DNA of 16,535 bases from Alphaproteobacteria bacterium. GTDB taxonomy: Bacteria; Pseudomonadota; Alphaproteobacteria; RF32; CAG-239. The translations under genes and the position numbers were made by a program. Location: contig JAEEYV010000009.1 of NCBI GenBank assembly GCA_016288295.1, positions 1-16,535 of the forward strand, in the 5' to 3' direction. Below, one piece after another: positions 1 to 15,002 of this stretch. Below the pieces are notes generated by a model. That model had not been told where the DNA came from. It saw nothing but the letters and a program-made list of their open reading frames with translations, and made no database searches. How positions within the stretch are numbered: the first letter of the stretch is position 1; each line of letters starts with the position of its first letter.

Positions 1-369
1 AACATCCGTTGGGGTTCGGACTGGAAAGGATTAAAAAAGGACGGGAAACAGCAAGACCCGTCCTTTTGTGTATTTGAAACACCGGAATACGGTATCCGGG
101 CGTTGGCCAAATTACTTCGTAACTATCAGCGGCTCTATGGCCTGAACACGCCTTACCGGATAATCAGCCGGTACGCACCACCAACCGAAAACGAAACGGT
201 TTCGTATATTGACAGCGTGTCCTGGCAGTTAAACATCACTCCGGACACACCGGTCGACCTTTCGGAAGATGGTGTTTTGATGGTCTTTATTAAGGCAATC
301 CTCAGACATGAAAACGGCATACAACCATACTCTAATGAAACTCTATTGAAAGGAATACAAATGGCATGA
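1..369 (+). CDS. 3' part of a phage lysis-module gene, putative endolysin / lytic-transglycosylase-like protein (5' end outside the window)
   Basis: Frame 1 is open from base 1 (NIRWGSDWKGLKKDGKQQDPSFCVFETPEYGIRALAKLL...), so the TTG at 103 in the ORF track is probably not the real start. The stop TGA 367-369 overlaps the ATG of the next gene (ATGA). From memory, the GIRA...L..Y...YAP..EN pattern belongs to a family often annotated 'structural protein P5' (phi6 P5-type lytic enzyme). Its position directly upstream of a holin and spanins fits a lysin. Not verified by search. Confidence 0.45.
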   Translation, partial: NIRWGSDWKGLKKDGKQQDPSFCVFETPEYGIRALAKLLRNYQRLYGLNTPYRIISRYAPPTENETVSYIDSVSWQLNITPDTPVDLSEDGVLMVFIKAILRHENGIQPYSNETLLKGIQMA

Positions 370-584
370 AAAAGCGGCTTTGGATCCCGGTCCTCGGGTG
401 GATCCTGTGTTACGGGTTCCTCCATAACTGCCTGATCGCACCTATAACGGGGCTTCCGGTAGTGGACTGGGAGTATTTATTAACGGCCATGGGCATTTTA
501 CTCGGTGTCAGTGGCGTACGAGATATTGGGTTAAAGGAAAGGAAAACACAAGATGTGGTATCAAATAACAAACCTTTGGAATAA
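366..584 (+). CDS. holin-like small membrane protein (two predicted TM helices)
   Basis: 72 aa with two hydrophobic stretches (IPVLGWILCYGFLHNCLIAPI and YLLTAMGILLGVSGV) and a charged C-terminus. ATGA start/stop overlap with the upstream lysin-like gene. Sits between the lysin and the spanins. Confidence 0.5.
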   Translation: MKKRLWIPVLGWILCYGFLHNCLIAPITGLPVVDWEYLLTAMGILLGVSGVRDIGLKERKTQDVVSNNKPLE

Positions 585-774
585 AGGCAAATACTGGATA
601 ATCGCCGGAGCGGTGGCCGTTTTATACATACTCGGCTACCGGCGCGGCAAGGAAAAAGAACAAGTGAAAGTAATGAAAGGAACGGTGGACAATGTCAAAA
701 CGGCTAAAAGAAGTCGGGATAGCCTGGCTGATCCTGAGCGCGTTAAGCGGTTGCACAACAAATATAAACGGTGA
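553..774 (+). CDS. i-spanin-like protein (Rz-like, N-terminal TM anchor plus charged periplasmic tail)
   Basis: 73 aa with an N-terminal TM (YWIIAGAVAVLYILGY) followed by a highly charged K/R/E-rich segment. AAGGAAAGGAAA RBS about 7 nt upstream of the ATG. Its 3' end overlaps, out of frame, a lipoprotein gene, which is the classic overlapped spanin layout. Shorter than typical i-spanins. Confidence 0.45.
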   Translation: MWYQITNLWNKGKYWIIAGAVAVLYILGYRRGKEKEQVKVMKGTVDNVKTAKRSRDSLADPERVKRLHNKYKR

Positions 775-886
775 TTTTTGCCTTTTATACGAACCGGTGT
801 ATGCAGATTATGAGCATGACACCCCCGAAACCATTCATCAAATTGACAGGAATAATGTAGTTTATGACGATTTATGCACGAAATAA
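692..886 (+). CDS. o-spanin-like outer-membrane lipoprotein (Rz1-like)
   Basis: 64 aa with the signal peptide MSKRLKEVGIAWLILSALSG|C and an L-S-G-C lipobox. The mature ~43-aa peptide has a C-terminal Cys (DDLCTK). It starts inside the 553..774 gene in another frame. Confidence 0.6.
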   Translation: MSKRLKEVGIAWLILSALSGCTTNINGDFCLLYEPVYADYEHDTPETIHQIDRNNVVYDDLCTK

Positions 887-895
887 TAGATTTTA

Positions 896-924
896 TTTGA
901 CTTTTCTTTGGAAAATGGCTCAAA
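896..924 (+). promoter_or_regulatory. possible sigma70-type promoter for the HU gene
   Basis: TTGACT (896-901), 17-bp spacer, TCAAAT (919-924), about 60 nt upstream of the ATG at 984. The -10 matches only 4/6. Confidence 0.3.
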
Positions 925-983
925 TCATAAGTGGAGGAGTCATGAGCCTCCGTAAACTTAACGTTAAGAAAGGAAAATTAAAC

Positions 984-1256
984 ATGAATAAAACTGAATT
1001 TGTTGAAGCAGTTGCTAAAACATCTGGTTTAACCAAAGCCGATGCCGGTCGTGCTGTTGCCGCCGCCATCGAAGTCGTTACAAAAGCCTTGAAAAAAGGT
1101 GATGCAGTTCAAATCACTGGTTTCGGTACATTTGGCGTTGCTAAACGCGCCGCTCGTAAAGGCCGCAACCCTGCAACCGGAAAAGAAATTAAGATTGCCG
1201 CTTCTAAGGCTCCTAAGTTCAAAGCCGGTGCAGTTCTGAAAAAAGCTGTAAAATAA
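984..1256 (+). CDS. hup: HU/IHF-family histone-like DNA-binding protein
   Basis: The 90-aa product MNKTEFVEAVAKTSGLTKADAGRAVAAAIEVVTKALKKGDAVQITGFGTFGVAKRAARKGRNPATGKEIKIAASKAPKFKAGAVLKKAV is an unmistakable HU fold signature (GFGTF...R.GRNP.TGE.I.I....P.FK.G..LK). AAAGGAAA RBS upstream of the ATG at 984. The 864 start in the ORF track would add a non-HU extension. Confidence 0.9.
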   Translation: MNKTEFVEAVAKTSGLTKADAGRAVAAAIEVVTKALKKGDAVQITGFGTFGVAKRAARKGRNPATGKEIKIAASKAPKFKAGAVLKKAVK

Positions 1257-1276
1257 GCCAAATTTGTCTTAATATA

Positions 1277-1307
1277 CCTCACAGGTTCTATCCCGTGAGG
1301 TTTTTTT
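1277..1307 (+). terminator. Rho-independent terminator after the HU gene
   Basis: CCTCAC(A)GG (1277-1285) pairs with CC(C)GTGAGG (1292-1300), followed by a T7 run (1301-1307), 21 nt after the stop codon. Confidence 0.8.
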
Positions 1308-1308
1308 G

Positions 1309-1337
1309 TTGCATTTTAATCTGCCATGGGTTATAAT
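1309..1337 (+). promoter_or_regulatory. near-consensus sigma70 promoter
   Basis: TTGCAT (1309-1314), exactly 17 bp, TATAAT (1332-1337). It lies immediately after the HU terminator and about 250 nt upstream of the next start codon. Confidence 0.55.
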
Positions 1338-1344
1338 GACCGAG

Positions 1345-1595
1345 CTTGGTTAGTTATGCCCAATCAGGCTAGGATTCGATAAATCCGATTATCAGTATGG
1401 GCAGAAGGTATTTCTGTCGGCATCCGCCATGGATACGCCGAAAGATTGTGTTAGTTCATGGGTGGATGCCTGCCGAATAAGGTATCCACCCCAATAAGGC
1501 AGGACTATTTCTCATACTGATAATAGTTTATCGACATCCACCCGCCTCATCACAGGTGGGTAAATTGTTGATATGGGGCGTATGAAGGGTGGATC
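1345..1595 (+). promoter_or_regulatory. long structured 5' leader or cis-regulatory RNA candidate with an SD-sequestering alternative helix
   Basis: No ORF. A 12-bp perfect closing stem, ATTATCAGTATG (1388-1399) / CATACTGATAAT (1513-1524), encloses hairpins 1400-1406/1412-1418, 1419-1428/1461-1470 and 1469-1474/1498-1503. The 8-mer GGGTGGAT (1460-1467, 1587-1594) and its complement ATCCACCC (1484-1491, 1536-1543) each occur twice. The last GGGTGGAT is the Shine-Dalgarno region of the ATG at 1596. Confidence 0.45.
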
Positions 1596-2036
1596 ATGGG
1601 CAAGATATGCTCGTTTTTTGGACACAGTCATTTATATGGACAATCAGAAAGTATTGTCCATCAATTAAGGCAAATCATTATCAATTTAATTGGAAAAGGC
1701 GTTGATACCTTTTACGTTGGCAATCATGGTGAGTTTGATATTTTTGCCAGCCGGGTAGCCTATGATCTGAAAAGTTTATATCCTAACATCCAAATCATTG
1801 TTGTTTTATGTTATCCAAATGAGTTGCAATACTTAAAATGTGCCTTCACGGATTTTTTGATGCCTCCGGAAATAGAAGCGGCCCCCAAACGGGCTTGCAT
1901 TGTAACTCGCAATCATTGGGTTGCTGATAATTCTGACTACATCGTCTGCTTTATCAAATACAAAATGGGTGGAGCCTATGCGGCTATCGAATACGCCCAA
2001 AAGCACCATAAACAGATTATAGAGGTGAGAGCATGA
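1596..2036 (+). CDS. SLOG-superfamily protein, DUF1273/YpsA-like
   Basis: 146 aa. The pattern FFGHS...(helix)...G.DTFYVGNHGEFDIFASRVAYDLKSLYPNIQIIVVLCYPNE matches my recollection of the DUF1273 layout (GHR..., G.D.wa...v..LK..yP.i.L..v.P). The RBS GAAGGGTGGA ends 2 nt before the ATG (1586-1593, ATG at 1596). Confidence 0.55.
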   Translation: MGKICSFFGHSHLYGQSESIVHQLRQIIINLIGKGVDTFYVGNHGEFDIFASRVAYDLKSLYPNIQIIVVLCYPNELQYLKCAFTDFLMPPEIEAAPKRACIVTRNHWVADNSDYIVCFIKYKMGGAYAAIEYAQKHHKQIIEVRA

Positions 2037-2143
2037 ACCAAGCAGGCATACGTCACATTTGGGCTGAACGGTTGACTTCGCAAGGGAAGACGGATAAAAT
2101 TGGCCCGGTAAAAACTCATAAAGAATGGTGTAAACATGCGTAA
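2033..2143 (+). CDS. possible 36-aa micro-ORF bridging the SLOG gene and the avd-like gene
   Basis: ATG 2033 overlaps the SLOG stop (ATGA). It encodes MNQAGIRHIWAERLTSQGKTDKIGPVKTHKEWCKHA. Its TAA (2141-2143) overlaps the ATG at 2136 of the next ORF. There is no homology evidence; only the coupling geometry supports it. Confidence 0.2.
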   Translation: MNQAGIRHIWAERLTSQGKTDKIGPVKTHKEWCKHA

Positions 2144-2699
2144 AGATCAAGTCAGTCGTAATCAAAGAATTCATATGCCCAGGAAGGTAGAAAACGTTTC
2201 GGGGCAATTAATGCTACCTGTGGATGTTGCTTCTGTGAAGCAAGCATTTGCAACAGCTAATGACAAACGATTTAAATATGCTGATGCGCTGGATCAAGCA
2301 ACCAAAGAAGATCCGGAATTGCATCAAATTTCAACAATTCCAAGCGATTCAAGCGAATTAATTGTTATAACGAAACTTAAAAAACTGGGGGCTTATATTC
2401 TAGCCGTGACGGTTAAATCGCCGGCCAAATTTAGACCTGTTTTTATCAATCGGATGCAAAATTACAGCTTGTCGGCTTTGGAAAATTTATTGAATGCTAA
2501 TTTTATTCGGATGGATAGCCCCGAACATAAAGCCCAGCGAGAAAAGCATCAAACGGATGCACTCATTCAGTTAAAAATGGTGGCATATGTTGCAATGCTG
2601 TCGGAAAATGCAAAGTGTATTTTGATGAGACAGTATAAACAAATATCCATTCAGGTTGGTGAAATTATTAACCTGATTATGGCATGGAAAAAAAAGTGA
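2136..2699 (+). CDS. avd: Avd-like DGR accessory variability determinant (four-helix-bundle protein) with an N-terminal extension; start uncertain (2136, 2175 or 2211)
   Basis: The C-terminal ~115 aa (LKKLGAYILAVTVKSPAKFRPVFINRMQNYSLSALENLLNAN ... ISIQVGEIINLIMAWKKK) shows the helical, basic Avd/bAvd pattern, including the terminal ...G.ml..W.k motif. It lies immediately 5' of the TR and upstream of a DGR RT, the canonical avd position. Confidence 0.65.
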   Translation: MRKDQVSRNQRIHMPRKVENVSGQLMLPVDVASVKQAFATANDKRFKYADALDQATKEDPELHQISTIPSDSSELIVITKLKKLGAYILAVTVKSPAKFRPVFINRMQNYSLSALENLLNANFIRMDSPEHKAQREKHQTDALIQLKMVAYVAMLSENAKCILMRQYKQISIQVGEIINLIMAWKKK

Positions 2700-2769
2700 T
2701 GATAAACAATGGCAAACAAAAAAGTTTTGAATCCGAAAGGGTCAAAAGAGGGAAAGTTGATAATGCGTA

Positions 2770-2890
2770 TTGTGCCTCTTGGTCCGCGTCTTCAAATGAA
2801 AATGAAAACGTGCGTTGCGTCAACTATAAGGGCGATAAGAACTGGAATAACACGAATAAACGTAAAATCTCGGCGCGCCCCGATTTGCTT
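2770..2890 (+). repeat. DGR template repeat (TR), 121 bp
   Basis: Aligns without gaps to 4396-4516 (offset +1626) with 101/121 identities. 16 of the 20 mismatches are at TR adenines. In the VR reading frame the TR carries 8 AAY (Asn) codons. It ends in a shared G/C-only core, GGCGCGCCCCG (2872-2882). Confidence 0.9.
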
Positions 2891-3143
2891 TTAAGGAGAA
2901 CAACAAAATGTGGTCGGCAAAGACACAGATCTCTGAAACAAGCCAGATATGTGGATTTTAGAAAAAATCCGCCCGTGCTTAAAGCAAAGGAAACTTTCTC
3001 TTTTCTAACCGCTGTCAGCTTAATGCTCAGTGCGGTGGAAGAAGTAAAAATGCAAAGTTTGCGTTTTATGGGGTATCACATATATTGACACGTCTTGTTT
3101 TAATATATTATCGGGTACCCCTTTTTTACAACAAAAGAGAACG
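2891..3143 (+). other. TR-RT spacer region of the DGR RNA (non-coding, structured)
   Basis: 253 nt between the TR and the RT start. Hairpin GGATTTT-AGAA-AAAATCC (2953-2970). Long hairpin GGGGTA..ATATATT / AATATAT..TACCCC (3070-3121) followed by T6 (3122-3127), 16 nt before the RT ATG. Confidence 0.5.
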
Positions 3144-4193
3144 ATGAAGATAGAAGAGATATTTACATTTGAAAACTTGGTTGCGGCCCACAAAGCATGT
3201 CGGCTGAGTAAGCAACATAAACGGGGAACAATCATGTTTGAAATTGAATTGGGGCGTAATGTCACCAATCTGGTCAAACAATTGACGGCTAGAACATATC
3301 GTTTAAGTCCTTACAGATCCTTTACCATTTATGATCCGAAGAAAAGATTAATTGAAGCGTTACCCTACAAAGACAGAGTGGTTTTAATGTGCTTTTGTCA
3401 GCATTCGGTAGCTCCCCGGCTAGAGAGACACCTGATTTATGACAATGCCGCTTCACGCAAAGAAAAAGGAACGCATTTTGCGGTAGAGAGATTGCATTCA
3501 TTTATGCGAAAGCTGTACATCAAAAACAAAACAAATCGGATTTATTTTTTGAAATGCGATATCAGGAAATATTTTCAAAGCATCAATCATGAGATTTTAT
3601 TGGAACTGTTGGCCAAGACCGGTTTTTCGGCTGATGAGATGTGGTTTTTAAGGATGATCATTGAATCACACGGTTCCATCGGGTTGCCTTTGGGTAATCA
3701 GACCAGCCAATGGTTTGCCTTGCTTTATTTGAACGGAATGGACCGGCTGATTAAAGAACGTTTGCGTATGTCCTGTTATGTGCGCTATATGGATGATTTT
3801 GTTGTCCTAAGCGAAGATAAAGCCAAATTACAGCTGTGTAGAAAGCAAATTGATGAATATGTCAAAGGATTAAAGCTGTCCTTAAATCAAAAGACACAAA
3901 TCGGGCTGTTATCGGATGGTATTGATTTTTTGGGATTTAACCACAAATTATCGGCCACCGGTAAGATTATCAAATCTTTGCGTGGATCGGCCAAAAGCCG
4001 CCAAAGAAAATACCTGAAAACCATCCGTCATTACTATTTGAATGATGTCCTGGATGATGAGTACCTAGACGTCCGTTTAGCCTCGTTTCGCGGGCATTTA
4101 AAGGGGACTAAGAACTGGATCCATATCAGCAACCGCTTGGCTTCCTTAAAACACGAGAAACGCCGTACAAAAAAAATTGTTGCAGAACAATAA
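3144..4193 (+). CDS. DGR-type reverse transcriptase
   Basis: 349 aa. The RT motifs include IYDPKKRLIEALPYKDRVV, the DGR-diagnostic motif-4 LGNQTSQ (aa 183-189, nt 3690-3710) followed by WFALLYLNGMD, and the catalytic YMDD (nt 3786-3797). There is no maturase/X or endonuclease domain and no retron-type motifs. A TR/VR pair flanks the gene. Confidence 0.9.
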   Translation: MKIEEIFTFENLVAAHKACRLSKQHKRGTIMFEIELGRNVTNLVKQLTARTYRLSPYRSFTIYDPKKRLIEALPYKDRVVLMCFCQHSVAPRLERHLIYDNAASRKEKGTHFAVERLHSFMRKLYIKNKTNRIYFLKCDIRKYFQSINHEILLELLAKTGFSADEMWFLRMIIESHGSIGLPLGNQTSQWFALLYLNGMDRLIKERLRMSCYVRYMDDFVVLSEDKAKLQLCRKQIDEYVKGLKLSLNQKTQIGLLSDGIDFLGFNHKLSATGKIIKSLRGSAKSRQRKYLKTIRHYYLNDVLDDEYLDVRLASFRGHLKGTKNWIHISNRLASLKHEKRRTKKIVAEQ

Positions 4194-4208
4194 ATTGTAT
4201 GATATACT
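4177..4208 (+). promoter_or_regulatory. possible extended -10 promoter in front of the target gene
   Basis: TGATATACT (4200-4208; TGn + TATACT) with a weak -35, TTGCAG (4180-4185), at 17-bp spacing. A strong RBS, AGGAGG (4227-4232), precedes the ATG at 4238. Confidence 0.3.
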
Positions 4209-4237
4209 GGGAGTATAAGCTAAATTAGGAGGTTCAT

Positions 4238-6187
4238 ATGGACTTTACGTTTTTGAAGGAAGATCAGATATGGGGCGATGATGCCCTGGATGTCATGAAA
4301 CGTTATGGCACGAAGGTTGCGCCAACGGATCTGACAGTCATATTGGGTGGTTATATGACCGGTGGTGGTGATCGTACTTCTGAAGATGATCTAACTTGTG
4401 CCTCTTGGTCCGCGTCTTCAAATGGGACTGGACGCGTGCGTTGCGTCAACTGTGAGGGCGATAAGAGCTGGGATAACACGGGGGAACGTGGAATCCTGGC
4501 GCGCCCCGCTTTGCCTCCATCGGAGGCATCTAAAATCAGCCCGAGCGAAGCGAGGGCTATCGCTGGAATCCGCGTAGCGGAATATGGGGAATACCCGCAA
4601 ACGGTCGCCGATGAACGCACCAGTGCAAAATTAGAAAGATTACATGATTCAAGATCTCTCCATCCGACCGGAAAAAATTACACATTTGATTCAGTTGGTT
4701 TAACCGATTATGACACGTCTTTTAAGGCCACATCCTATCAGGAATATGAAATGGATGGCAAAAGGTATATCCGCGTTCCTGGACGGCCTGCTGACGACGA
4801 TAGCAAGCTATCTACCGGGGAACAGGTAGAGTCCGGAAAACCCTACTGGGTTGAGGTCCAGCCGATAGAATGGCTGATGGATAGAAGCGGCACAATGGTC
4901 GCCAAAAAATGCTTATTCGCCGGTATTCAATTTGATACAAAGAGCTCATATGACGGTGACTTCTCTAAAACGTCCATGAAGCACTATTTGGACACTTATT
5001 TTGCCAAAGAAATGGAGCCGACCGGACGTGTAGCCGCAAGAACGGTATCAAGAGACTATGAAGAAGAGCCGGAAAGAAAAGAACCCGTTAAAAAGAAAGA
5101 ACCGACAGCCAGACAGAAGAAATACGGGATCAAGGTATCTGATGAGCCTATGCCCGTCAAGGACCAAATAAACTTCTATATTCAAAACGGAATGAGCTTC
5201 ATGCTCCATGGCCCGTCCGGTGTCGGTAAATCACAACGTGTGAAAGAAATTGATCCGGATTTGACCTCAATTACGCTGTGTAACGGAATTTTGCCTGAAG
5301 ATGTTATCGGTAAAACAATCTATCCAAACGGCGTGGGAGCCGATGGGGCCTCCGGTGGTGTTTGGGTGCCGCCTAAGTGGTACACGGATTTGTGCAGAAA
5401 ATGCGAAACAGAACCGGACAAACAGCACGTCTTGTTTATCGATGAAGTGACCAATGCGCGTGAAACAACACAAAGTTTGATCTATCACGTAGCGTTGGAA
5501 AAATCAATTGCCCAGGGCGTTGGCAAACTGCCTAATAATGCTGTGGTCGTGTTGGCCGGTAACAGCAAGGAAGAATCAGGAGCCGCTTATAACATGCCGG
5601 CCCCGTTGTTCAGACGTTTAAGCCATATTTACTTGGACTTGAATATTCAGGATTGGTTGGAATGGGGTTCAGAACACAGCAAGAGCCATCCGGAGGATCC
5701 GGATCGCTTAAACATCCATCCGTTAGTCGCCAGTTTTGTGGCAACCTACGGACGGCAAGTGTTCTATTCCGAGTATGATGAAGAAAACCCCGGTAAGTTT
5801 GCTCTTGACCCACGAAAATGGGAAAAGGTATCAGATAAAATCTATGCTAATAAGGGTGTGATGCGCCGTGAGATTTTGGAAGCTGATATCGGGCCTGAAT
5901 TGGCGGCCAGTTTATTGTCATATGCTAAAAATCCGCCGCTATCTTTGGAAGAAGTGATTGATGGCGAATATACCCGCGAGGATATTCCTACGGGGCAGGA
6001 TGCCCGTTTGGCGTTGGCGTTGAGTTTGCGTCATGCAACACCGAAACAAGTCGGGAAAGTACGTCAATTTGTTGAAACACAGTTAGGCGCAGAAAATCGT
6101 GCGATTTTTGACTCTGTTTGGGTGGGCAAGGATGATACACGCGCCATGCAGATCGCCACTCTACATAACTTAAAGGGAGGAAGATAA
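4238..6187 (+). CDS. DGR target protein: N-terminal variable ligand-binding-type domain fused to a MoxR/AAA_5-type ATPase
   Basis: 649 aa with no signal peptide or TM. The N-terminal ~270 aa contain the VR (aa 53-93). They also carry motifs resembling the W..RS...V...G....(V/A)RPAL and IEW..(L/M)D modules of DUF6273-like/lectin-like domains. The C-terminal half has Walker A GPSGVGKS (nt 5210-5233), Walker B VLFIDE (5429-5446) followed by VTNA (compare the MoxR DEINRA), sensor-1-like VVVLAGNS, and APLFRRL (compare MoxR ..LDRF). Confidence 0.85.
   Translation: MDFTFLKEDQIWGDDALDVMKRYGTKVAPTDLTVILGGYMTGGGDRTSEDDLTCASWSASSNGTGRVRCVNCEGDKSWDNTGERGILARPALPPSEASKISPSEARAIAGIRVAEYGEYPQTVADERTSAKLERLHDSRSLHPTGKNYTFDSVGLTDYDTSFKATSYQEYEMDGKRYIRVPGRPADDDSKLSTGEQVESGKPYWVEVQPIEWLMDRSGTMVAKKCLFAGIQFDTKSSYDGDFSKTSMKHYLDTYFAKEMEPTGRVAARTVSRDYEEEPERKEPVKKKEPTARQKKYGIKVSDEPMPVKDQINFYIQNGMSFMLHGPSGVGKSQRVKEIDPDLTSITLCNGILPEDVIGKTIYPNGVGADGASGGVWVPPKWYTDLCRKCETEPDKQHVLFIDEVTNARETTQSLIYHVALEKSIAQGVGKLPNNAVVVLAGNSKEESGAAYNMPAPLFRRLSHIYLDLNIQDWLEWGSEHSKSHPEDPDRLNIHPLVASFVATYGRQVFYSEYDEENPGKFALDPRKWEKVSDKIYANKGVMRREILEADIGPELAASLLSYAKNPPLSLEEVIDGEYTREDIPTGQDARLALALSLRHATPKQVGKVRQFVETQLGAENRAIFDSVWVGKDDTRAMQIATLHNLKGGR
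4396..4516 (+). repeat. DGR variable repeat (VR) inside the target gene
   Basis: Counterpart of TR 2770-2890. TR adenines are replaced by G (13 times) or C (3 times). It encodes ...CASWSASSNGTGRVRCVNCEGDKSWDNTGERGILARPAL..., versus the TR-frame ...CASWSASSNENENVRCVNYKGDKNWNNTNKRKISARPDL... Confidence 0.9.
4513..4527 (+). other. short GC-rich hairpin at the 3' boundary of the VR (candidate homing-enhancing hairpin)
   Basis: GCCTCC-ATC-GGAGGC is a perfect 6-bp stem with a 3-nt loop. It starts 5 nt after the G/C-only core GGCGCGCCCCG (4498-4508). It is absent from the TR side, where the sequence diverges after 2890. Confidence 0.5.
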
Positions 6188-6188
6188 A

Positions 6189-6659
6189 ATGTCATTAAAA
6201 GAAATGCTCGAAAAAAATCGGAAAAAACGCAAGAATGGCTTAGTCATCCAACCTGATATAGGATGGGCAGGACCGAAACCCGCCAAAACAAAGGCCGAAA
6301 AGATTAATCAAATCAAAACGGAATTTATTGATGACAGAGCTTTATTGATTGTCGGGGCTAAAGCCTCCGATTTTGCAGAATATCCGAAGATAGAGGCCAA
6401 TGTCTCAGTCCAAGACTTAATCAAGCACATCGAACAATTGGAATCTGTAAAACAAAGACTGAAAAAGAAGATGTTGCTTGTTATAACCGGGCTGGATAAG
6501 GTTTCGGCTGATGAACAGGCAAAATTCATTCCTCTCTTGAAGGATAGGCAAATTATGGCAAGTAAATTGCCTGATGCGGTTCAAATTGTTATGCCTGTTG
6601 CTGATGCTGATGCAGTTTCTCATGCAACAAAGTCACTCATTTTTGAATTGAAAGTATAA
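6189..6659 (+). CDS. hypothetical 156-aa protein, middle gene of the ATPase-vWA operon
   Basis: Strong RBS GGGAGGAAG. The start is 1 nt after the ATPase stop, and the stop is 2 nt before the next ATG. I recognise no motif; LLVITGLD...IVMPV vaguely recalls a degenerate P-loop-fold strand order. Basic N-terminus. Confidence 0.6.
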   Translation: MSLKEMLEKNRKKRKNGLVIQPDIGWAGPKPAKTKAEKINQIKTEFIDDRALLIVGAKASDFAEYPKIEANVSVQDLIKHIEQLESVKQRLKKKMLLVITGLDKVSADEQAKFIPLLKDRQIMASKLPDAVQIVMPVADADAVSHATKSLIFELKV

Positions 6660-6661
6660 TA

Positions 6662-8512
6662 ATGCCTAATATGGTCACAGAGCAACAGGAAGAAATTCAA
6701 TATATCAAAGAACAGGTTTTGGCCAAGTTCCCTTTGCTCGGTGTGACAATGCGGCCTTTATCGGTTGTTCCTGATGATAGAATTGGGACAGCGGCCACAG
6801 ATGGACATCGCATTATCTATTCTCCAAAGTTTTTTAGCACCTTATCGGATGAACAAAAGCAATTTGTCTTTGCGCATGAAGTGATGCATGTCGCTTTTAA
6901 CCATATTTTGCGCAGTAAGGGTCGTAATCAAAGGTTGTGGAATATCGCAACCGATTCTGTTATCAACCAAATTCTGAAAAATGAAAAATTGCCATTAACG
7001 GAAGGTGGTGTTGATATTGCAGAAGCTGTCAACCATTCGGCCGAGGAAATGTATGAAAAACTCTTGAAAAAGAAAGAACAGCGCGATCAGGAAAAGGGGC
7101 AAAATCAAGAGCAAGATCAACAACAGCAACAACAACAATCACAATCCGGTGGGGCGGACCAGCCTCAGGATCAGGATGCACAAAATCAGCCTGAACAGGA
7201 ACAACCTCAGGATCAAGACGGACAAAATCAATCCGGACAAGACCAGCCTCAGGATCAAGACGGGCAAAAGGGACAAGAACAATCCGATCAACAATCAGAC
7301 GGTTCGGAAAATCAAGATGAACAAAACAAAAATTCATCAGAAGGCTCGGAAGGATCCGAACAACAGAAAGATCAATCTCAAGATGGTGATTCAAACTCTG
7401 ATCAAAACAGTTCTTCAGGTCAGGGAGACGAGAATCAATCTGATTCAAATTCCGAACAATCAAGCGACAATCAACAGGGATCCTCTAAACCTCAAAAAGG
7501 TGGTCAACGTTCGCAATCCGGTTCTTCCTCTCAATCAGAAGACACCGACTGGGATGACAGCAATATCGATTGGGACAATGAAGATGAACAAGTAGGCCAC
7601 GATACACACGATATTTGGAAAGAAGCGGTTGAAGAGGCAGAACGTGAAGAACAACGGAAACAGGAACAAGCGAATAAGAAGAGTTTGTGGAATAGGCTGA
7701 AAGAAGCCATGGGGCAAAAAGAAGCTTCCGAGGGTCAAGGTGAACCTCAAGAAAAAGAAGCACCCGTGCCACAGGATGAAAACATGGATGCCTATGAAAA
7801 AGGCTTCTTGGCAGAAAATCAAGAAAAACGTCATGAGATGGCCGAACAGGTGCGCGAGCAATTAAACAGGATAAAAGGAAGCCTCCGTCAATCAAATGAT
7901 CATACCACAGTCGGGGATGTTGGGGAAACTCAAACGCCGGTGGTTGATTGGAAAAAAATGCTTAAAAAATCTTTCGATGAAGAGCGTGATCGTTGGTCCT
8001 ATCGTCGTTCCGGTTCTGAAAATGACTATATGGCCCGGGTGGAAGAATTGGAAGATGAAGGCCGTCCGGATACGGAAGTTATGTTGGATGTGAGCGGTTC
8101 TGTAAATATCCGCTTGTTACGTGAATTTTTAAGACAACTTAAACCGTTGCTTAAATCCTCTAAATTAAAGGTCGGTTGCTTTGATGAGTTTGTTTATGAC
8201 TTTAAGGAAATAAAGACTAAAGAGGATATTGACCATTTCCAAATTACGGCAAAATCTCAATGGACTGAAAACTGGGATGCGGCTGTCCGGGCATTTTCTA
8301 AGAAAAAAGAAGTGAATAAAATTATTTTTACAGACGGATATCCATGCCCAGGAACAATGCCTAAAGAAGATTTAAAGGGTAAGAATGTTATTTGGATAGT
8401 TTACGGAAATAAAGATTTTAATCCATGCTGTGGTAAAGTCATCCAGGTTTCCGAACGACAACTTCAGTCGTATATTCAGACGGCCGCTCCACTTTCTAGA
8501 GGTGGAAGATAA
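6662..8512 (+). CDS. DUF2201-type protein: N-terminal putative Zn-metallopeptidase domain, long disordered linker, C-terminal vWA-like domain
   Basis: ATDGHRIIYSPKFF....FVFAHEVMHVAFNHILR....WNIATDSVINQIL contains HExxH at nt 6875-6889, the pattern I associate with Pfam DUF2201_N. The C-terminus has the vWA MIDAS-like DVSGS (nt 8087-8101) and ...IIFTDGY. This is the typical partner of MoxR-class ATPases. Confidence 0.8.
   Translation: MPNMVTEQQEEIQYIKEQVLAKFPLLGVTMRPLSVVPDDRIGTAATDGHRIIYSPKFFSTLSDEQKQFVFAHEVMHVAFNHILRSKGRNQRLWNIATDSVINQILKNEKLPLTEGGVDIAEAVNHSAEEMYEKLLKKKEQRDQEKGQNQEQDQQQQQQQSQSGGADQPQDQDAQNQPEQEQPQDQDGQNQSGQDQPQDQDGQKGQEQSDQQSDGSENQDEQNKNSSEGSEGSEQQKDQSQDGDSNSDQNSSSGQGDENQSDSNSEQSSDNQQGSSKPQKGGQRSQSGSSSQSEDTDWDDSNIDWDNEDEQVGHDTHDIWKEAVEEAEREEQRKQEQANKKSLWNRLKEAMGQKEASEGQGEPQEKEAPVPQDENMDAYEKGFLAENQEKRHEMAEQVREQLNRIKGSLRQSNDHTTVGDVGETQTPVVDWKKMLKKSFDEERDRWSYRRSGSENDYMARVEELEDEGRPDTEVMLDVSGSVNIRLLREFLRQLKPLLKSSKLKVGCFDEFVYDFKEIKTKEDIDHFQITAKSQWTENWDAAVRAFSKKKEVNKIIFTDGYPCPGTMPKEDLKGKNVIWIVYGNKDFNPCCGKVIQVSERQLQSYIQTAAPLSRGGR
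7157..7270 (+). repeat. three imperfect 42-nt (14-aa) tandem repeats inside the disordered linker
   Basis: Units start at 7157, 7199 and 7241 (GACCAGCCTCAGGATCA(G/A)GA(T/C)G.ACAAAA...) and encode (D)QPQDQD(A/G)QNQ-type repeats. Confidence 0.7.
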
Positions 8513-8521
8513 GATACAACG

Positions 8522-8542
8522 CCATTCTTAGACGATGAATGG
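8522..8542. terminator. weak hairpin between the convergent operons (possible bidirectional terminator)
   Basis: CCATTC (8522-8527) pairs with GAATGG (8537-8542), with a 9-nt loop and no clear U-tract. It is the only structure in the 44-nt convergent intergenic gap. Confidence 0.2.
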
Positions 8543-8556
8543 GAAAGTGTGTTAAA

Positions 8557-11139
8557 TTAAGATAAATTAGCCTCAAAAATTTGATAAAGGTCAAATTCTA
8601 TACCGTCCACGCCTCTGATGAGGTCTATTTCGTCTTCAGCGGCAACATCAATTCGGGCCTGATCTAAAAACAAGCCTTCTTCTTTTCGTTTAAGCTCTTT
8701 TTCAGCGACATTTAGTTGCTTTTGAATACGCAACTCCGACAGTCTGTCTGAAGCGGTAGATATTGTTTCGCGTATTTTTTTAACCTCTTGCCTTGCCTCG
8801 GACAGATTCTGTTCCAATACAGATTTTTGGCGGCTGGCTTTTATTTTAATTAAATCAACATCCGTATCGAACTTTTTGGTATAATCATTTACATAACGTT
8901 CTTTAAGGTCGCGCTGGATGCGTGTATCTAACAAATCTCGCGATGAACCGCCAGTCGTTTTTAGCCAATACGGATTCCTCTTTTCTTCAGCTATAAATTC
9001 ACTAACCGGTTGATTGATAATTTTTTGGCATTCCTCATCAGTCATGAGCCGCCCATCAGGGGTCGTACCAACCAAAATGTCATACTCTGATAAATACTGA
9101 CGGCGGCGATTACGTAAGACGATGTTGTAGAACTTTATATTGCATTTCTCTGTCGGAGCAACGGTTTTAATGTCCGCTTTGTCAGAGCATGATATTTCCT
9201 GTAAAATACCACGAACAAGCACGGATGTTAAAGTGATGCGCCCCGCGGCCGGCTTAAAATCTTTACTCATTCCATAAGTCCTGCGACCGGTGTATGGCAC
9301 ATTTCTTGTGCCGGTGTAATAGTAAAACATGTGCGGCAATTCTTTGTCGTCCGGTAAAGTCAGCGTTTGATTGTAGTCATCGATCACATATTCCGGATGC
9401 TTTGTCGCAAAATAAAACTTCACAACTTCCCATAAATCTTTATTCAAGAACTCCGCTTGTTCCTCTATGTATTTTGGCGAAACGGACACTTTCTCGGCAA
9501 TATCTTTGGTAAAAGTGGTAAAGAGAGAACTTTCAGCCGCTGAAACAATGCGCTCATTCGGTTCGCGGTTTACTTCCAAGTTTGTTTCCATATCTGCGCG
9601 TATATCACTAAGCGTGCGGCGTTTTTGCAAAACATCTTCCAGTTTAACATCAAAATTACCGACAATATCGTCCGACATACCAAAAATGCCTTCAAATTGC
9701 AGGGTACGCTTGTTTATCAGCTCCAAAATACGGACATCCGAGATATTTTCTTTGCTTAAAAGATTGATAACTAAAACATCGGATTGCTGGCCTTGTCGGT
9801 GGCAACGACAGATACGCTGTTCCATTTCCACGGCGTTATAAAGTAAATCATAGTTAACCACAACTGGACAATATTCAATATCCAAGCCTTTGGCCATAGC
9901 ATCATTACAAATTAAAATTTGCAAATCTTTTTCTGCCCGAAAACGTGGCAGAGCATCATTTTCTGTATGCTTGATGACATTATATCCGGCGGTTTTAAGC
10001 AAATTTGCCAAAACTGGCACGGTGGCAAGATTATCCACGAACACAATCGCTTTTTGTGTTTCTTTACGCAATTTTAAGTGTGCAAATGTCGTTTTAATAG
10101 CTTTTAGAAATTCTTCCATTTTGGCGGTTTGCGTAATTTTTGCCGCCATATCGCGCATTGATTCCAAAATAACACGTTCATCGCCTTGTGTTCGCTCAAT
10201 AGGTGCTTCCAACATTGTGGCAAATGCTTGTGGTGATGAGGCCAAAATGTGGTAAAACATCAAAGTCAGTTGATAATTATCCATTTGCGGATAAGCCTGC
10301 TTTTCAGCTAAATTTAAGTATTTTTCGGTTAAATCATAAATTTTCTTTTCATCATCTTTTGGCACATAGTTCAAAACAATCGGTAAGCGACGTGTAAAGT
10401 TTACATACTGGCTCGCTTGGCTTTTAAGGGTACGAAAAGCGAATTGTGATACCCAATTTGATAGTTCTGGATAGTTTTCGGGCTTTCTGAAATACCGGCG
10501 ATAAAAACTGTCAGGATCCGGCAGAACGCTTTCATCAATAAAATGTATCAATCCGTAAATATCCATGATACTCATTGTGATCGGCGTTGGCGTTAAAAGC
10601 AGTTTGAAAGCATCGCCGACAGCACCCTTAATGGTTGCAACTGATTTATTGTCCGGCTTAAAAAGAAAATCAGCCTCATCAAACACGGCCAAATCCCAAC
10701 GAATGCTTTTGACTTCTTCTGCCTCACGGATAACATCATCGTATGTGACAAGGCAAATACCTTTACTATCGGCAGTATATTCGGCCCATTTGATAACCGG
10801 CAAGGTGAACTCTTCATCAAGTTTTTGTTGCCATTGTGCCATAAGGTTTTGGGGTAAAACAACCAATATATGTTCTTTTCCCTCGTACCAACGTTGAGCT
10901 ACTACAAGCAAAGCCTCATAAGTTTTACCGAGTGAGCCTTCATCACATAAAATGCAACCTTTAATCAACCTGGATCGCAGGGCAAAACGGGCCGCGGCTA
11001 TTTGATAAGGTAATACTTTAATTTTTGAAGAAGCATAAACCGCCAGTAAATTATCGTCATCGCGAAAACTGGCCAATCGTCTGGCTTCCACCATAGCGGC
11101 AAATTCGGATACAAAACGATACGGCTTAGTCTCTTCCAT
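8557..11139 (-). CDS. SNF2-family helicase/translocase with a long C-terminal extension ending in a coiled coil
   Basis: 860 aa. Motif I is LCDEGSLGKT, motif II is VFDEADFL, and the C-terminal helicase lobe has ...KGLDIEYCPVVVNYDL...EQRICRCHRQGQ (SNF2 motif VI). The C-terminal ~350 aa are unassigned, and the last ~100 aa are heptad-like and charged. The start is 3 nt downstream of the res stop. Confidence 0.85.
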   Translation of the reverse strand: MEETKPYRFVSEFAAMVEARRLASFRDDDNLLAVYASSKIKVLPYQIAAARFALRSRLIKGCILCDEGSLGKTYEALLVVAQRWYEGKEHILVVLPQNLMAQWQQKLDEEFTLPVIKWAEYTADSKGICLVTYDDVIREAEEVKSIRWDLAVFDEADFLFKPDNKSVATIKGAVGDAFKLLLTPTPITMSIMDIYGLIHFIDESVLPDPDSFYRRYFRKPENYPELSNWVSQFAFRTLKSQASQYVNFTRRLPIVLNYVPKDDEKKIYDLTEKYLNLAEKQAYPQMDNYQLTLMFYHILASSPQAFATMLEAPIERTQGDERVILESMRDMAAKITQTAKMEEFLKAIKTTFAHLKLRKETQKAIVFVDNLATVPVLANLLKTAGYNVIKHTENDALPRFRAEKDLQILICNDAMAKGLDIEYCPVVVNYDLLYNAVEMEQRICRCHRQGQQSDVLVINLLSKENISDVRILELINKRTLQFEGIFGMSDDIVGNFDVKLEDVLQKRRTLSDIRADMETNLEVNREPNERIVSAAESSLFTTFTKDIAEKVSVSPKYIEEQAEFLNKDLWEVVKFYFATKHPEYVIDDYNQTLTLPDDKELPHMFYYYTGTRNVPYTGRRTYGMSKDFKPAAGRITLTSVLVRGILQEISCSDKADIKTVAPTEKCNIKFYNIVLRNRRRQYLSEYDILVGTTPDGRLMTDEECQKIINQPVSEFIAEEKRNPYWLKTTGGSSRDLLDTRIQRDLKERYVNDYTKKFDTDVDLIKIKASRQKSVLEQNLSEARQEVKKIRETISTASDRLSELRIQKQLNVAEKELKRKEEGLFLDQARIDVAAEDEIDLIRGVDGIEFDLYQIFEANLS

Positions 11140-11142
11140 AAT

Positions 11143-14100
11143 TTACACCGTTTTCTTAAATTCCTGCCAATTTCTGACCGGCTGTTCGGAGTAGATAACA
11201 TTATCAAGAGCTTTGAAGTGCTGTGCACCGCAATGGATTTTTTGTTGTTCTTCCGGTCGCAGGCCATAGAACGAATCAGTTCCTTTGGTTTCAAGCACGA
11301 AATAAAGTTTCTGTTCGCCGTTTTTCTCTAAATAGACAGCCCAGTCCGGATTATAGGTTCCGATAGGTGTATCAATCTTAAACCGGCTTGGAATTTTAAA
11401 GAACATTTTAACGTCAGGATCCTCATCCAAAGCAACGGCAAACGGCTTTTCAACCGTGCTACTGTCATAAATAACATAGTCATAAACGCTGTTTTTAACC
11501 GCGACAGCATTACGATCAAGATTAGCAATCAATTCTTCGCTCGAGAAAATCTCTTGCACGGCATATTCTTCGCCGGCCAATTTAATATACTTAATTCCAT
11601 CAATGGCCAATGCATGACGATTGCGCTGGATGATCTCCAAAACCTTTTCGTAGAAGTCTTGTGGGTTTTTCAAAAAGTCTCCGGCCCGGCCGCTTTCTTG
11701 AATGATTTTATTCACGGTGGAACGTTTCAGCAATGTTTTGGTAGAGATTAAACGCAAAATATCCGGCAGAACATCATAGCTCTTTTCCAGGTTTTGGGTA
11801 AACATCGCACCGGCTTGGGCAGTTACGCCTGACTTTTGAATATCAACTGAGGCTGTCTGACTGAGTAAACGGGCCGAAGCAATCTCCGGCATTTCGCGAA
11901 TATCCTTGATACTATCGGCGATAAGCTTATCCAAATCAAACTGGACCCGATAAGTGGTCTTTTGCTTAATTTTATTCCACAACTCCATAAATTCAGGTGA
12001 TAACAGCGCACGTTTATTGAGTTTTACCGTTACATCCTTGGAGGCATCGCGGATGTTGAGCTTGTTATCAGCCTTGTTCATGGACTGTAAAATTGCACGT
12101 TGCGCGGCTTTTGACCAACGCTCGCTTAAATTGAGTGTACCGGCGGCAAGCTGTGCCTTCATGGTGTCTTTAATCTTGTTCTTGCTGTCAATAACCTTTT
12201 TATCTTTCAGCTCATCCATAATCGCGGCCGCTTCCTCATACGAAAAGGTCTTTTTCTCGACAACAGTTTCTTTATATGTTGTATTCGCAAGCGCGGCAAC
12301 CGATACCGGCTTTGAAGTTTTGATCATATCTTGAACATGTGTTTTGACCGGCTCCGGCATCGGGATGTTTTCGATTTTAATTTCTTCAGGTTTAACTTCC
12401 GGTTTAATGTAGCCGCCATCATCAATTAACCCATGCTTTTGTAAATCTTCCACAATAGCGGTGGCCTCACTCTCGCTGACCGTACGTTCAACTTCAACTT
12501 CTTCATCGTAAGAGTAGCCGACAAGCATATCCAATTCGAAAACGCCGAATTTAACACCGGTTTCATCTTCAATTTCTTTTTGCAGCTTATCAGCAAACTC
12601 GGCAAAACTTTCGTTGGCGATAACGTGCAAAACATTGATGTTCTTATCCTCAATCCGTTCTCCGTCCTGATTAACGCAAAGTCTTAAACCACGACCGATT
12701 TTTTGACGGCAGGTAAACAGCGATTTTTGCTCGATCAACGTGCAAACTTGGAAGACGTTCGGATTATCCCAACCTTCTTTTAACGCCGAGTGCGAGAAAA
12801 TAAAGCGGAGCGGACATTCAAACGACAACAGCCACTCTTTATCTTTCATAATGGTATTATAAGTGTCATCATCAGCCTGCGTGTCGCCTTTGGTATCCTT
12901 ATATTTACCTTTTTTATCCTGGGAGAAGTAGCCGTTATGCGCTTTATTTACATCCGTATCAAATTTGGTTTTCAAAATAGCATACTTCGGCTTATTGATC
13001 AGCTCGTTGTAGCATTCCTCAAACATTTCGGCATAAATACCTTTGCCACCATCCTCGGTGCGGTATTTTTTAACCTCATCAATAAAGAACAGGGACAGCA
13101 CCTTAATTCCCATATCAAAATAGCGCAATTCTTTATCAAGGTGCGTTTTAATGGTCTGATAAATTTGCGCACGTTTCAAAACTTTTTCATCAACGCTACC
13201 GATGGCTTTACCCAGGGCAACATATTCTGAGTTTGCAAATTCCACACCTTCAAGGCCTGATGTACAATCGATTCCCGAAACAACATAGCCTTCATAAATT
13301 TTGCGGTGACCGGATTTGATAAACAGATCATCGTCCGGTTTAACCGTTATAACCTTACGCGTAATATGGGCGTTGTCGTCTTCCACATCAATTTCCAGTT
13401 TGGCCGCAAAACCGTTGGCGTTTGAAACATCTTTTAAGGCGATATACGGCTTGTTCGAATCATTGATGACCGAGTTTGAAATGACACAAATTTGTTTTAC
13501 CAAGCCCATCTGATACGCATCAACCGGTGTTAAACGATAGACAAGATTCTGCTTTTCGCGGTGGGTGGCAGAATAACGTAAAACGCACAGCGGATTGAGC
13601 ATGGCGATGGCTTCCTTTGCCTTTGGTGTATTATCAACACTTTGTGGCTCATCAATAATCACAACCGGATTCGTGTCTTGGATATAGCGCATAGCGGTTT
13701 CGCCGTTCAGTTTATCCTGCTCTTGATTGATAATGTTTTCGGCCTTTTTGAAAGCATCGATGTTGATGATCATGATTTCAATATTGCTGGAAGTCGCAAA
13801 GGCTCGCACATCAGAGAGCTTGGCCGAATTATAAATAAAGTAGCGGTACGGTACGCCGTCATATTGATTTTTGAAGTATTCTTCCGTAACCTGAAACGAC
13901 TTGTTTACGCCCTCACGAATAGCCACGCTCGGTACAACAATAATAAACTTTGTAAAGCCGTAGCGGTGGTTAAGCTCCAAAATTGTCTTGGTATAAACGA
14001 AAGTTTTACCGGTTCCGGTTTCCATTTCGATTGAGAGCGGCACCGCCTTAATGCCGTCAATGTCGGTTTGCGGCAGAGAATGAGCCTTTTGGATTGCATG

Positions 14101-14301: not shown

Positions 14302-14993
14302 TTACCTATTTTATAAATTACATATTTAATTTCAGGATTCGAAAACTGCTCCTTAAAGAAAGATTCCATTTTCTTGTCATTATTCACAACTTCTTTAGGC
14401 AATTGATTAAAATTTAATATTGTTTTATCCATCATGCCTACATCATTTATCAGAATACGATGACGCTTGTCTTCGTTCTTATTCCAGTAGAGGATCGCAT
14501 ACCTTATAGAGCCGGAAATAACCTCATTATCAAACGTAACGCTGTGCGTTGTAATGGTTTCCAACTTTTTCTTTTTTTTGATTTTACCAGTAAACGGGAT
14601 AAAAATCGTCTTTTCGGGAGTTTGAACTCTAAAATATATGTCTTTATGCATAGGGATTTCAGGCTCATAGGAGTATCTTTTCCCCATAATGTTATATGCA
14701 TGAAAAGGTTCCAACAAAAATGGCTCATCAAAAGTTTTTAGTGTCATTAGGTATTTATTGTTGAATACGACAGAGATGGCCGTAATCGTTTTCGGAGAGA
14801 GCGTTTTATTGAATATCGTGCAATGTAAACCACTCCCTTCAAAAGAATTATGATTTTCTCCGAAAGATGTTATTTTAAGATTTTTTGAAAAGTGGTAAAG
14901 CCAAAAGCCATAAGCAGTTAAAACAAATATCCCCAAATTACCAAGGATGGATGCTACTTTCTCAACAGTTTCCAAATTCAAAAAATCACACAT
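14298..14993 (-). CDS. hypothetical membrane-anchored protein inserted between mod and res
   Basis: 231 aa with a single N-terminal TM (ILGNLGIFVLTAYGFWLYHF) and no recognisable motif. Good RBS (GAGGTGGACG before the ATG). Its stop overlaps the res start (ATGA). Visibly more AT-rich than mod or res. Confidence 0.6.
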   Translation of the reverse strand: MCDFLNLETVEKVASILGNLGIFVLTAYGFWLYHFSKNLKITSFGENHNSFEGSGLHCTIFNKTLSPKTITAISVVFNNKYLMTLKTFDEPFLLEPFHAYNIMGKRYSYEPEIPMHKDIYFRVQTPEKTIFIPFTGKIKKKKKLETITTHSVTFDNEVISGSIRYAILYWNKNEDKRHRILINDVGMMDKTILNFNQLPKEVVNNDKKMESFFKEQFSNPEIKYVIYKIGK

Positions 14994-15002
14994 CGTCCAC
15001 CT

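Follow-up and report, generated by a model that had tools for sequence, protein, structure and literature searches.

What would a cytoplasmic ATPase recognise if its N-terminal domain were rewritten by a diversity-generating retroelement (DGR)? DGR targets of known role are mostly extracellular binders, while cytoplasmic ones linked to NTPases have been proposed to act as antigen sensors, a role that is as yet putative. The question is raised by a locus in 16,535 nucleotides (nt) of DNA from an Alphaproteobacteria bacterium (GCA_016288295.1, contig JAEEYV010000009.1, positions 1 to 16,535), the whole of which we call the window. Here a DGR accompanies a target gene for a 649-amino-acid (aa) protein with a MoxR-class AAA+ domain, which is followed by genes for a 156-aa protein and for a DUF2201 protein that combines zincin-like and von Willebrand factor A (vWA)-like parts. 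A first-pass annotation of the sequence had proposed a hypervariable sensor or defence system. We find that the system is real, active and conserved, and that the contextual support for defence is narrower than this annotation assumed. With confidence evenly balanced, we propose that a DGR-diversified recognition head on a cytoplasmic MoxR-class ATPase, together with a zincin-vWA partner, is used in mobile-element conflict.

An active DGR at the 5' end of its target gene

The cassette has the order avd-TR-RT-target, where TR is the template repeat and RT the reverse transcriptase, and the variable repeat (VR) lies within the open reading frame (ORF) of the target:

2136-2699, plus strand: Avd-like DGR accessory protein, a 187-aa ORF whose Avd-like part is aa 75-187
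2770-2888, plus strand: TR, between avd and the RT gene, with 37 adenines
3144-4193, plus strand: DGR reverse transcriptase of 349 aa that carries YMDD (aa 215) and the DGR-type motif LGNQTSQ (aa 183)
4238-6187, plus strand: DGR target, 649 aa, comprising the head (N part, aa 1-100; M part, aa 101-262), a linker (aa 263-286) and the AAA+ domain (about aa 300-649)
4396-4514, plus strand: VR, aa 53-93 of the 649-aa ORF at 4238-6187
4497-4528, plus strand: 3' VR boundary, GC-rich GGCGCGCCCCG, then CTTTGC (ATTTGC in the TR), then a hairpin
4538-5023, plus strand: M part of the head, aa 101-262, conserved across the family, including relatives without the N part and without a DGR
5135-6187, plus strand: MoxR-like AAA+ domain, with Walker A GPSGVGKS at 5210-5233 and Walker B LFIDE at 5432-5446

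The TR/VR pair that the first-pass annotation had recognised, with the VR at aa 53-93 of the target, stands. The two copies form a 119-nt direct repeat with 84% identity, and 16 of their 19 mismatches fall at TR adenines; the three others (2857, 2870 and 2871) are private to the window's VR, and three sister genomes agree with the TR at these positions. A scan of GTDB with one genome per species yielded 75 loci, mostly from uncultured gut Alphaproteobacteria of humans and ruminants, with Clostridia in addition, and 15 of the 75 have a TR/VR pair of their own, at the same N-terminal position and with adenine-specific mismatches. Because these 15 other pairs are independent and lie in the same place, the repeat is not due to chance, and the sequences at 2770-2888 and 4396-4514 are a true DGR pair. 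The VR has 19 adenine-programmed codons, which correspond to about 10^18.6 possible peptides.

The RT matches RVT_1 (1.3e-19) and phrog_1423 (5e-93) and is 28% identical to the DGR RT of the Faecalibacterium phage FP_Mushu. For the Avd-like protein there is a match at 4.7e-10 to phrog_3206 ("Avd protein of DGR") and there are weaker ones to PF22296 bAvd (1.9e-5, under the curated cut-off) and NF033474 (also under its cut-off); an avd-like gene is kept 5' of the RT gene in 15 related loci. At the 3' end of the repeats, the base after GGCGCGCCCCG is C in the VR and A in the TR, resembling an initiation-of-mutagenic-homing (IMH) 3' end, and this difference is present in all 15 loci with a TR/VR pair. 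The full VR/TR difference CCCG[C/A]TTTGC is kept in 13 of the 15, L004 and L021 being slightly off at flanking bases. A hairpin at 4512-4528, with a 7-bp stem and a 3-nt loop (TGCCTCC ATC GGAGGCA), has no counterpart in the TR, and its perfect form is restricted to the closest relatives. It covers the last three bases of the VR, extends just beyond them and overlaps the conserved LPPSEAS codons. It is reminiscent of the hairpin required for retrohoming in phage BPP-1. In a scan of 1200-8700 for promoters and terminators, sites were no more numerous than in shuffled sequence.

The DGR is active in nature. The TRs of the window and of loci L001, L002 and L005 differ by 0-1 nt, and their VRs differ at 21-29 of 119 sites, with 85-100% of these between-genome differences at TR-adenine positions. 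Between L005 and L002 there are 29 differences in the 119-nt VR and 4 in the remaining 1831 nt of the target gene. The annotation had expected the ATPase's N-terminal domain to vary across populations, and it is hypervariable exactly at the TR-adenine codons: among 38 homologues with 81-96% identity, entropy peaks over these codons at aa 61-85, while C54, S60, G74 and A88-R89-P90 within the VR are invariant and W57, V67 and V70 nearly so. A further case is L003, whose target is 91% identical to that of the window. Its VR (L003 10162-10280) and the window's TR disagree at 24 sites, and adenines account for 20 of these. Within 22 kb of it there is neither an RT nor an Avd nor a TR; since there is no TR in this range and yet the VR differences are mostly at adenines, the DGR of L003 operates from elsewhere in the genome or was recently lost.

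The association between DGR and target follows the N part. The first-pass annotation had treated the DGR and the three downstream genes (ATPase, small protein and DUF2201 protein, hereafter the triad) as one system. In a census of the loci, an RT gene is found in 16 of 25 loci with the N part (9 have none) and in none of 50 loci without it (Fisher p = 2e-10, the loci being phylogenetically non-independent), and the triad is common also without a DGR. Homologues lacking the N part had seemed a natural headless class, an idea we rejected for at least two of them, P0070 and P0092, which are artefacts of in-frame stops or a frameshift in the VR. Stops of this kind occur within the VRs of L078 (8975-9289, plus a frameshift) and L079 (6448-6643), where gene callers split the target into an ORF of about 60 aa and an apparently N-less ATPase. 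The TR contains two AAG and two AAA codons that are able to mutate to stops. The VR stops may be a by-product of DGR action, a result of assembling mixed VR populations, or a means of turning the head on and off.

The target is a predicted cytoplasmic MoxR-class ATPase

We found 605 homologues of the target protein. An AlphaFold2 model built with 121 sequences has a confident aa 1-262, a low-confidence linker at aa 263-286, and an AAA+ domain, with Walker A GPSGVGKS at aa 325 and LFIDE at aa 399. The first-pass annotation had called the C-terminal half MoxR-like, and all the motifs that it quoted are there, VVLAGN and APLFRRL included; these two are kept in the 121 homologues, which show no variation in Walker A, Walker B or the sensor asparagine N442 and almost none in the paired R459-R460.

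The closest folds agree with this assignment. The top 18 Foldseek matches to the AAA+ domain are all NorQ or CbbQ (E 2.6e-9 to 2e-7, target TM-score 0.54-0.69), the best being NorQ at E 2.6e-9 and CbbQ at E 4.3e-9, with target TM-scores of 0.6-0.69. Among sequence models the sole strong match is phrog_1297, "ATPase" (4e-37); the Pfam matches to AAA_5 (16.6 bits against 22) and AAA_3 (17.3 against 27) stay under their cut-offs, and the best sequence match among structures is 2r44. The absence of a signal peptide from the target had also been noted, and hydropathy supports it: neither the target nor the 156-aa or DUF2201 protein has a hydrophobic N-terminus, signal peptide or transmembrane segment, the Kyte-Doolittle 19-residue maximum being 0.86-1.23 across the three. 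The target is thus a predicted cytoplasmic protein whose C-terminal half is assigned, from motifs and modelled fold, to AAA+ ATPases belonging to the MoxR class.

The head that carries the VR

Modelled alone, aa 1-262 give a pLDDT of 97.1 and a pTM of 0.93, with the N and M parts packed as one compact unit. The model has strands at 56-61, 67-70 and 76-79, and the variable codons fall in loops and at alternating positions of strand 76-79, a pattern that would fit an exposed patch made up of a beta-hairpin and loops.

The head recurs well beyond the ATPase. A profile of aa 1-104 searched against 1.84 billion representative proteins found 929 cluster representatives at E <= 1e-3. Among the best 148 of the 929, 111 have N and M without the ATPase and just 8 have all three parts, some of the short entries being possibly fragments. 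The tails of these relatives include ankyrin, MORN, DUF4116, coiled coil and a membrane segment, and tandem head-head repeats also occur. Because N and M recur on many other tails, mostly without the ATPase, the head is, judging by these architectures, a modular N-terminal domain of a large uncharacterised family, of which the ATPase fusion and the DGR are special cases. Most head proteins with other architectures have no DGR nearby; no RT was found near head proteins with other tails in the contigs of the three that were looked up. The head is absent from 50,697 phage genomes.

Family matches to the head are scarce. Ten diverse members have no Pfam match even at E 10, and the sole recurrent Pfam link is a weak one to DUF6273, at 7.8e-6 in P0142 and at about 1e-4 in 2 of 52 head proteins. 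In P0142, which has tandem heads, the match covers the end of one M part and the N part that follows, which suggests that the order of the head may be rearranged relative to DUF6273. This idea of a circular permutation (DUF6273, or the C-lec domain of tentaclins) drew on the position of the P0142 match and on the motif order of the FP_Mushu target; permuted and native head profiles alike failed to align with that target. Separately, a search of PDB sequences with an N-domain profile returned just summed weak matches to beta-propeller blades, which we judged spurious.

Downstream partner proteins

The two genes that follow the target are, as the first-pass annotation had described, coupled at gaps of 1 nt (6187/6189) and 2 nt (6659/6662), and the HExxH and metal ion-dependent adhesion site (MIDAS)-like motifs of the second are conserved:

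6189-6659, plus strand: small conserved protein, 156 aa, between the ATPase and DUF2201 genes
6662-8512, plus strand: DUF2201 protein, 616 aa, with a zincin-like part (aa 19-188), an acidic linker of about 300 aa rich in Q, E, D and S, and a vWA-like part (aa 473-596)
7096-7281, plus strand: four 42-nt tandem copies within the low-complexity linker of the DUF2201 protein

The DUF2201 protein scores 2e-28 against DUF2201_N and 1.2e-6 against the vWA-like DUF2201 model. Its HEVMH lies at aa 72-76 (6875-6889) and its DVSGS at aa 476-480 (8087-8101); HExxH is present in 62/62 relatives and the MIDAS-like DxSxS in 60/62. Complete homologues span 413-896 aa, a variation that probably arises in the linker. 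The ATPase and DUF2201 genes are adjacent in 57 loci. Several Clostridia metagenome-assembled genomes (MAGs) have two or three paralogues that consist of M plus ATPase, some on one contig (L055/L059, L057/L063/L065, L058/L064/L074, L060/L066 and L035/L043), and a tblastn search for a neighbouring DUF2201 gene was negative.

Searches of Pfam, PHROG, NCBIfam and PADLOC gave no match to the 156-aa protein, and its family profile found nothing credible in the PDB (best, AIM2 PYD at E 0.07). An ORF occupies its position in 52 related loci, 31 of which align as a single family with the core motif L-V-I-x-G-L-D...Q-x-K-F...L-L-K-D-R...LP..VQIV. In hhalign this core aligns weakly (E 0.0028, probability 11%) with the part of the ATPase between Walker B and sensor 1, which hints that the protein may be a degenerate AAA+-like fragment.

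Genomic context

The triad is convergent with a minus-strand operon at 8557-16526, in the order Type III Mod, 231-aa ORF, Type III Res, SNF2:

8557-11139, minus strand: SNF2/DrmD-like helicase, 860 aa, best score to DISARM DrmD (1.9e-76)
11143-14301, minus strand: Type III Res
14298-14993, minus strand: 231-aa ORF without a family match
15003-16526, minus strand: Type III Mod

SNF2 co-occurs with the triad in the closest loci only, and Res with Mod in still fewer. In L076, SNF2 still adjoins the triad and a serine recombinase beyond it replaces the restriction-modification (R-M) genes. Lambda-like tail genes and an endolysin gene lie just upstream in L001, a locus 97% identical to the window; upstream phage tail genes are found solely in L001, L004 and, partly, L005. 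In the lineage of the window, the gene content fits a cassette at the accessory end of a prophage.

Two small genes 5' of the cassette deserve mention. A 146-aa YpsA/SLOG-like protein, under the Pfam cut-off, is encoded at 1596-2036, just 5' of avd; its gene accompanies the DGR in L001, L002, L004 and L005 and not in the more distant DGR-positive loci. A gene for an HU-family DNA-binding protein (864-1256) lies between the lysis region and the DGR and is kept in the closest loci only.

The surroundings of other loci are varied. The DGR-positive L078 is set among ordinary chromosomal genes, L079 adjoins toxin-antitoxin genes and a lysozyme gene, L080 has housekeeping surroundings, and L003 has as neighbours an ankyrin protein, an integrase fragment, DUF4747 and an AAA_21 ATPase. 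For 47 loci we surveyed the flanks, taking on either side the two large ORFs closest to the locus; besides cellular genes, these flanks held three AriA/OLD-like ATPases, two integrases and three invertases, and there were no phage structural genes among the families listed. In IMG/VR there were just two distant relatives, and a megablast search of phages with positions 1-8600 of the window gave no match. The flank surveys and IMG/VR together rule out a triad that is always prophage-borne or always in defence islands.

Relation to known systems

Several elements of this arrangement are already published, namely DGRs with MoxR-vWA systems, N-terminal VRs, and AAA-type DGR targets. In multicellular bacteria, DGRs diversify C-terminal CLec/FGS domains that belong to vWA-MoxR ternary systems (Kaur et al. 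2020, PMC7159879; Dore et al. 2024, PMC10907252), and in some of these loci a MoxR gene adjoins a target that has an unannotated N-terminal extension (PMC7159879, PMC10907252). These VMAP ternary systems share with the window a DGR-diversified ligand-binding domain, a MoxR ATPase with a vWA protein and a peptidase, a predicted cytoplasmic location, and a variable domain that is read as a sensor. They differ in the place of the VR, which is a C-terminal CLec/FGS domain either joined to the vWA protein or on a separate target, whereas in the window no such domain is fused to the vWA component and the VR sits in the ATPase's own N-terminal head. Their ATPase is a separate gene, they have VMAP as third component, and their peptidases resemble trypsin or caspases; in the window the zincin is on the vWA protein and the third component is the apparently unrelated 156-aa protein. 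The hosts differ as well, being multicellular cyanobacteria and gammaproteobacteria for the VMAP systems and gut Alphaproteobacteria MAGs for the window.

N-terminal VRs are known from tentaclins, in which they lie in a DUF6273-like C-lec domain (PMC10743442); DUF6273 is reported to be a C-lec-like domain that DGRs target in gut phages and that ends in the VR on its C-terminal side (PMC10743442, PMC11792537). The Hoc-like target of FP_Mushu, an example of the tentaclin and DUF6273-type targets, resembles the window in its avd-TR-RT-target order, a VR near the 5' end of the target and an N-terminal globular domain, although no sequence similarity between the two targets was detectable. Tentaclins have Ig-like domains and a virion-anchoring C-terminus and are read as extracellular binders; the window's target has no Ig or Fn3 match, and its C-terminal half is the AAA+ ATPase.

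Two further comparisons concern the triad. The N4-like gp24/small ORF/gp25 block, and the MoxR and metallopeptidase-vWA pair of jumbo phages (PMC7824862), share the gene order of the window, with a small ORF of about 160 aa. In Pseudomonas phage Ab09 (L081) the block occupies 13580-16406 of the record and consists of a gp24-like ATPase of 356 aa, a 164-aa ORF and a gp25-like DUF2201/vWA protein. Between N4-like phages and the window the ATPases are about 25-30% identical and the peptidase domains 29% identical, while the small ORF has no detectable similarity to the 156-aa protein; the Ab09 ATPase is too short for a 262-aa head, and the Ab09 region viewed has no annotated RT. NorQ-NorD, CbbQ-CbbO and RavA-ViaA, which include the closest solved structures to the ATPase domain, likewise have a vWA partner with a MIDAS-like motif, but each serves one fixed client (cNOR, Rubisco, or LdcI and respiratory complexes) and has neither a peptidase domain nor a hypervariable region.

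AAA-type targets also have precedents in DGR surveys. Targets of DGRs from the candidate phyla radiation (CPR), in class UVR4, match a Midasin AAA domain, and VRs are N-terminal in 3 of 372 DGRs (Wu et al. 2018, PMC5758913). The UVR4 targets are like the window's in having an AAA-type NTPase domain and belong to a different lineage, a comparison by description only. PF13203 and PF09967 appear as singleton DGR neighbours in the supplement of Belalov et al. 2023, where they are not discussed, and the main text of Roux et al. 2021 does not mention ATPase targets. The first-pass annotation had known of no described system with this exact architecture. That statement survives in its narrow form, as we found no paper that describes a VR within the MoxR ATPase itself, a DUF2201 partner in such a role, or the head family; it must be qualified by the related DGR-vWA-MoxR systems, N-terminal VRs and AAA targets listed above.

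Proposed function and alternatives

The reading that we hold with evenly balanced confidence can be set out in steps. The DGR (avd, TR and RT) rewrites 19 codons in the head of a cytoplasmic MoxR-class ATPase, and the 262-aa head, N plus M, would be a ligand-binding module at the substrate-recognition end of the ATPase. NorQ and CbbQ, the closest folds, work with vWA partners; if the pairs NorQ-NorD, CbbQ-CbbO and RavA-ViaA are a guide, the ATPase ring should engage the DUF2201 protein, with which it is co-transcribed, through the latter's vWA domain. Anything captured by the variable head would next be acted on by the zincin domain and by the 156-aa protein. The likeliest use would be in conflict of the bacterium or its prophage with other mobile elements, for which a large pre-made recognition repertoire would be at hand, and the side served could be defence or counter-defence. 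The DGR is the nearly certain part of this reading: its anatomy and its natural activity are shown, as are the domain composition, the conserved catalytic motifs and the conserved order of the genes. From characterised MoxR-vWA pairs and published comparative work we infer the coupling of the three proteins, the proteolysis of the ligand, the conflict role and its direction.

Several observations speak for this proposal. Since the head recurs with ankyrin, MORN, DUF4116, coiled-coil and transmembrane tails, as sensor heads do, it can be read as a sensor. There is published precedent, by analogy, for DGR-diversified sensors in MoxR-vWA systems (PMC7159879, PMC10907252), and the cassette of this lineage appears to lie in a prophage accessory region beside SNF2/DrmD-like and Type III R-M genes. 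A conflict or defence role for the DGR-ATPase-DUF2201 system is on these grounds plausible.

Other results weigh against it, and they concern both the head and the setting. The surface exposure of the VR is deduced solely from the pattern of secondary structure, and the fold of the head has no significant Foldseek match in the PDB (best E 0.26) or BFVD (best E 0.08); with no Pfam match for the window's head either, the lectin-like fold that the first-pass annotation had suggested for the VR domain is unconfirmed. VRs with in-frame stops exist, and because AAA and AAG codons of the TR can become stops, part of the repertoire is non-functional. The defence-like setting described in the first-pass annotation applies to the closest loci, which have prophage tail and lysis, SNF2 and Type III R-M genes around them, and does not extend to the rest, since the flanks of the 47 loci are mostly ordinary cell genes. 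None of the three triad proteins matches a PADLOC-DB 2.0 family at E <= 0.01, so that a defence database lends the idea no model match. Among N4-like, rV5-like and jumbo phages, 435 records contain a distant version of the ATPase and 234 one of the DUF2201 protein, the lytic N4-like Ab09 has the full three-gene order, and a pro-phage chaperone role has been proposed for the phage MoxR and metallopeptidase-vWA pair (PMC7824862). Because the triad order is found in an N4-like phage, and the ATPase and DUF2201 proteins in other phages, the core module is not intrinsically one of host defence.

A bolder form of the proposal, which we offer only tentatively, is that the locus encodes an anticipatory, protein-level recognition machine. 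Up to about 10^18 head variants would capture foreign or host proteins and pass them to the zincin-vWA partner for programmable proteolysis or remodelling. The head would be an undescribed DGR scaffold, either a new fold or a rearranged relative of the DUF6273-type C-lec domain, and VR stops would silence the head and spare the genes that follow it.

The main rival reading places the system on the phage side, in counter-defence or takeover. Host proteins, for instance defence factors or replication blocks, would be remodelled or degraded by the triad, and the DGR would let a prophage follow variable host targets. The Ab09 gene order and the 435 and 234 phage records that match the ATPase and the DUF2201 protein favour such a weapon, as does the position of the window's cassette in what looks like prophage accessory DNA, with tail genes and endolysin upstream and, in L076, a serine recombinase beyond SNF2. 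Yet close relatives are nearly missing from IMG/VR, which holds the two distant matches, and the head is unmatched in the 50,697 phage genomes; upstream tail genes are confined to L001, L004 and partly L005, and many loci, the DGR-positive L078 among them, lie among ordinary chromosomal genes. We consider this explanation unlikely.

Assembly-chaperone and housekeeping roles fit the repertoire size and the contexts poorly. A MoxR and peptidase-vWA pair that folds, processes or assembles virions or other large complexes has been proposed for jumbo phages (PMC7824862), a comparable role has been shown for tail development in the Acidianus two-tailed virus, and the cassette does follow tail and lysis genes in L001 and L004; but about 10^18 head variants would be pointless for a fixed assembly client, the triad is distant from phage structural genes in most loci, and the Ab09 block lies beside gp37-like and gp39-like genes and not structural ones (about 4 kb viewed per side), which makes this role improbable. 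We regard as very improbable a housekeeping MoxR-vWA maturation factor for a cellular metallo-enzyme with the DGR as a recent neutral passenger, for although the characterised pairs NorQD, CbbQO and RavA-ViaA are maturation or activation factors and the flanks are often ordinary cell genes, the link of DGR to target is conserved in 15 or more species-level genomes, where the scaffold residues persist and codons vary only at TR-adenine sites, the 47-locus survey found no conserved client gene in the neighbourhood, and several Clostridia genomes have multiple paralogues.

Implications

Our findings extend the known link between DGRs and MoxR-vWA "conflict" systems. The organisms concerned inhabit mammalian guts. 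They also connect a widespread and unstudied phage block, of the N4 gp24-gp25 type, to a hypervariable recognition domain, and this gives a handle on the targets of that block. The locus is a compact test case: a single VR, a single ATPase and a single peptidase-vWA partner fit into about 6.4 kb, and there are natural variants that are almost alike outside the VR. An uncharacterised head in a compact layout that is rich in natural variants makes this system a good experimental entry point.

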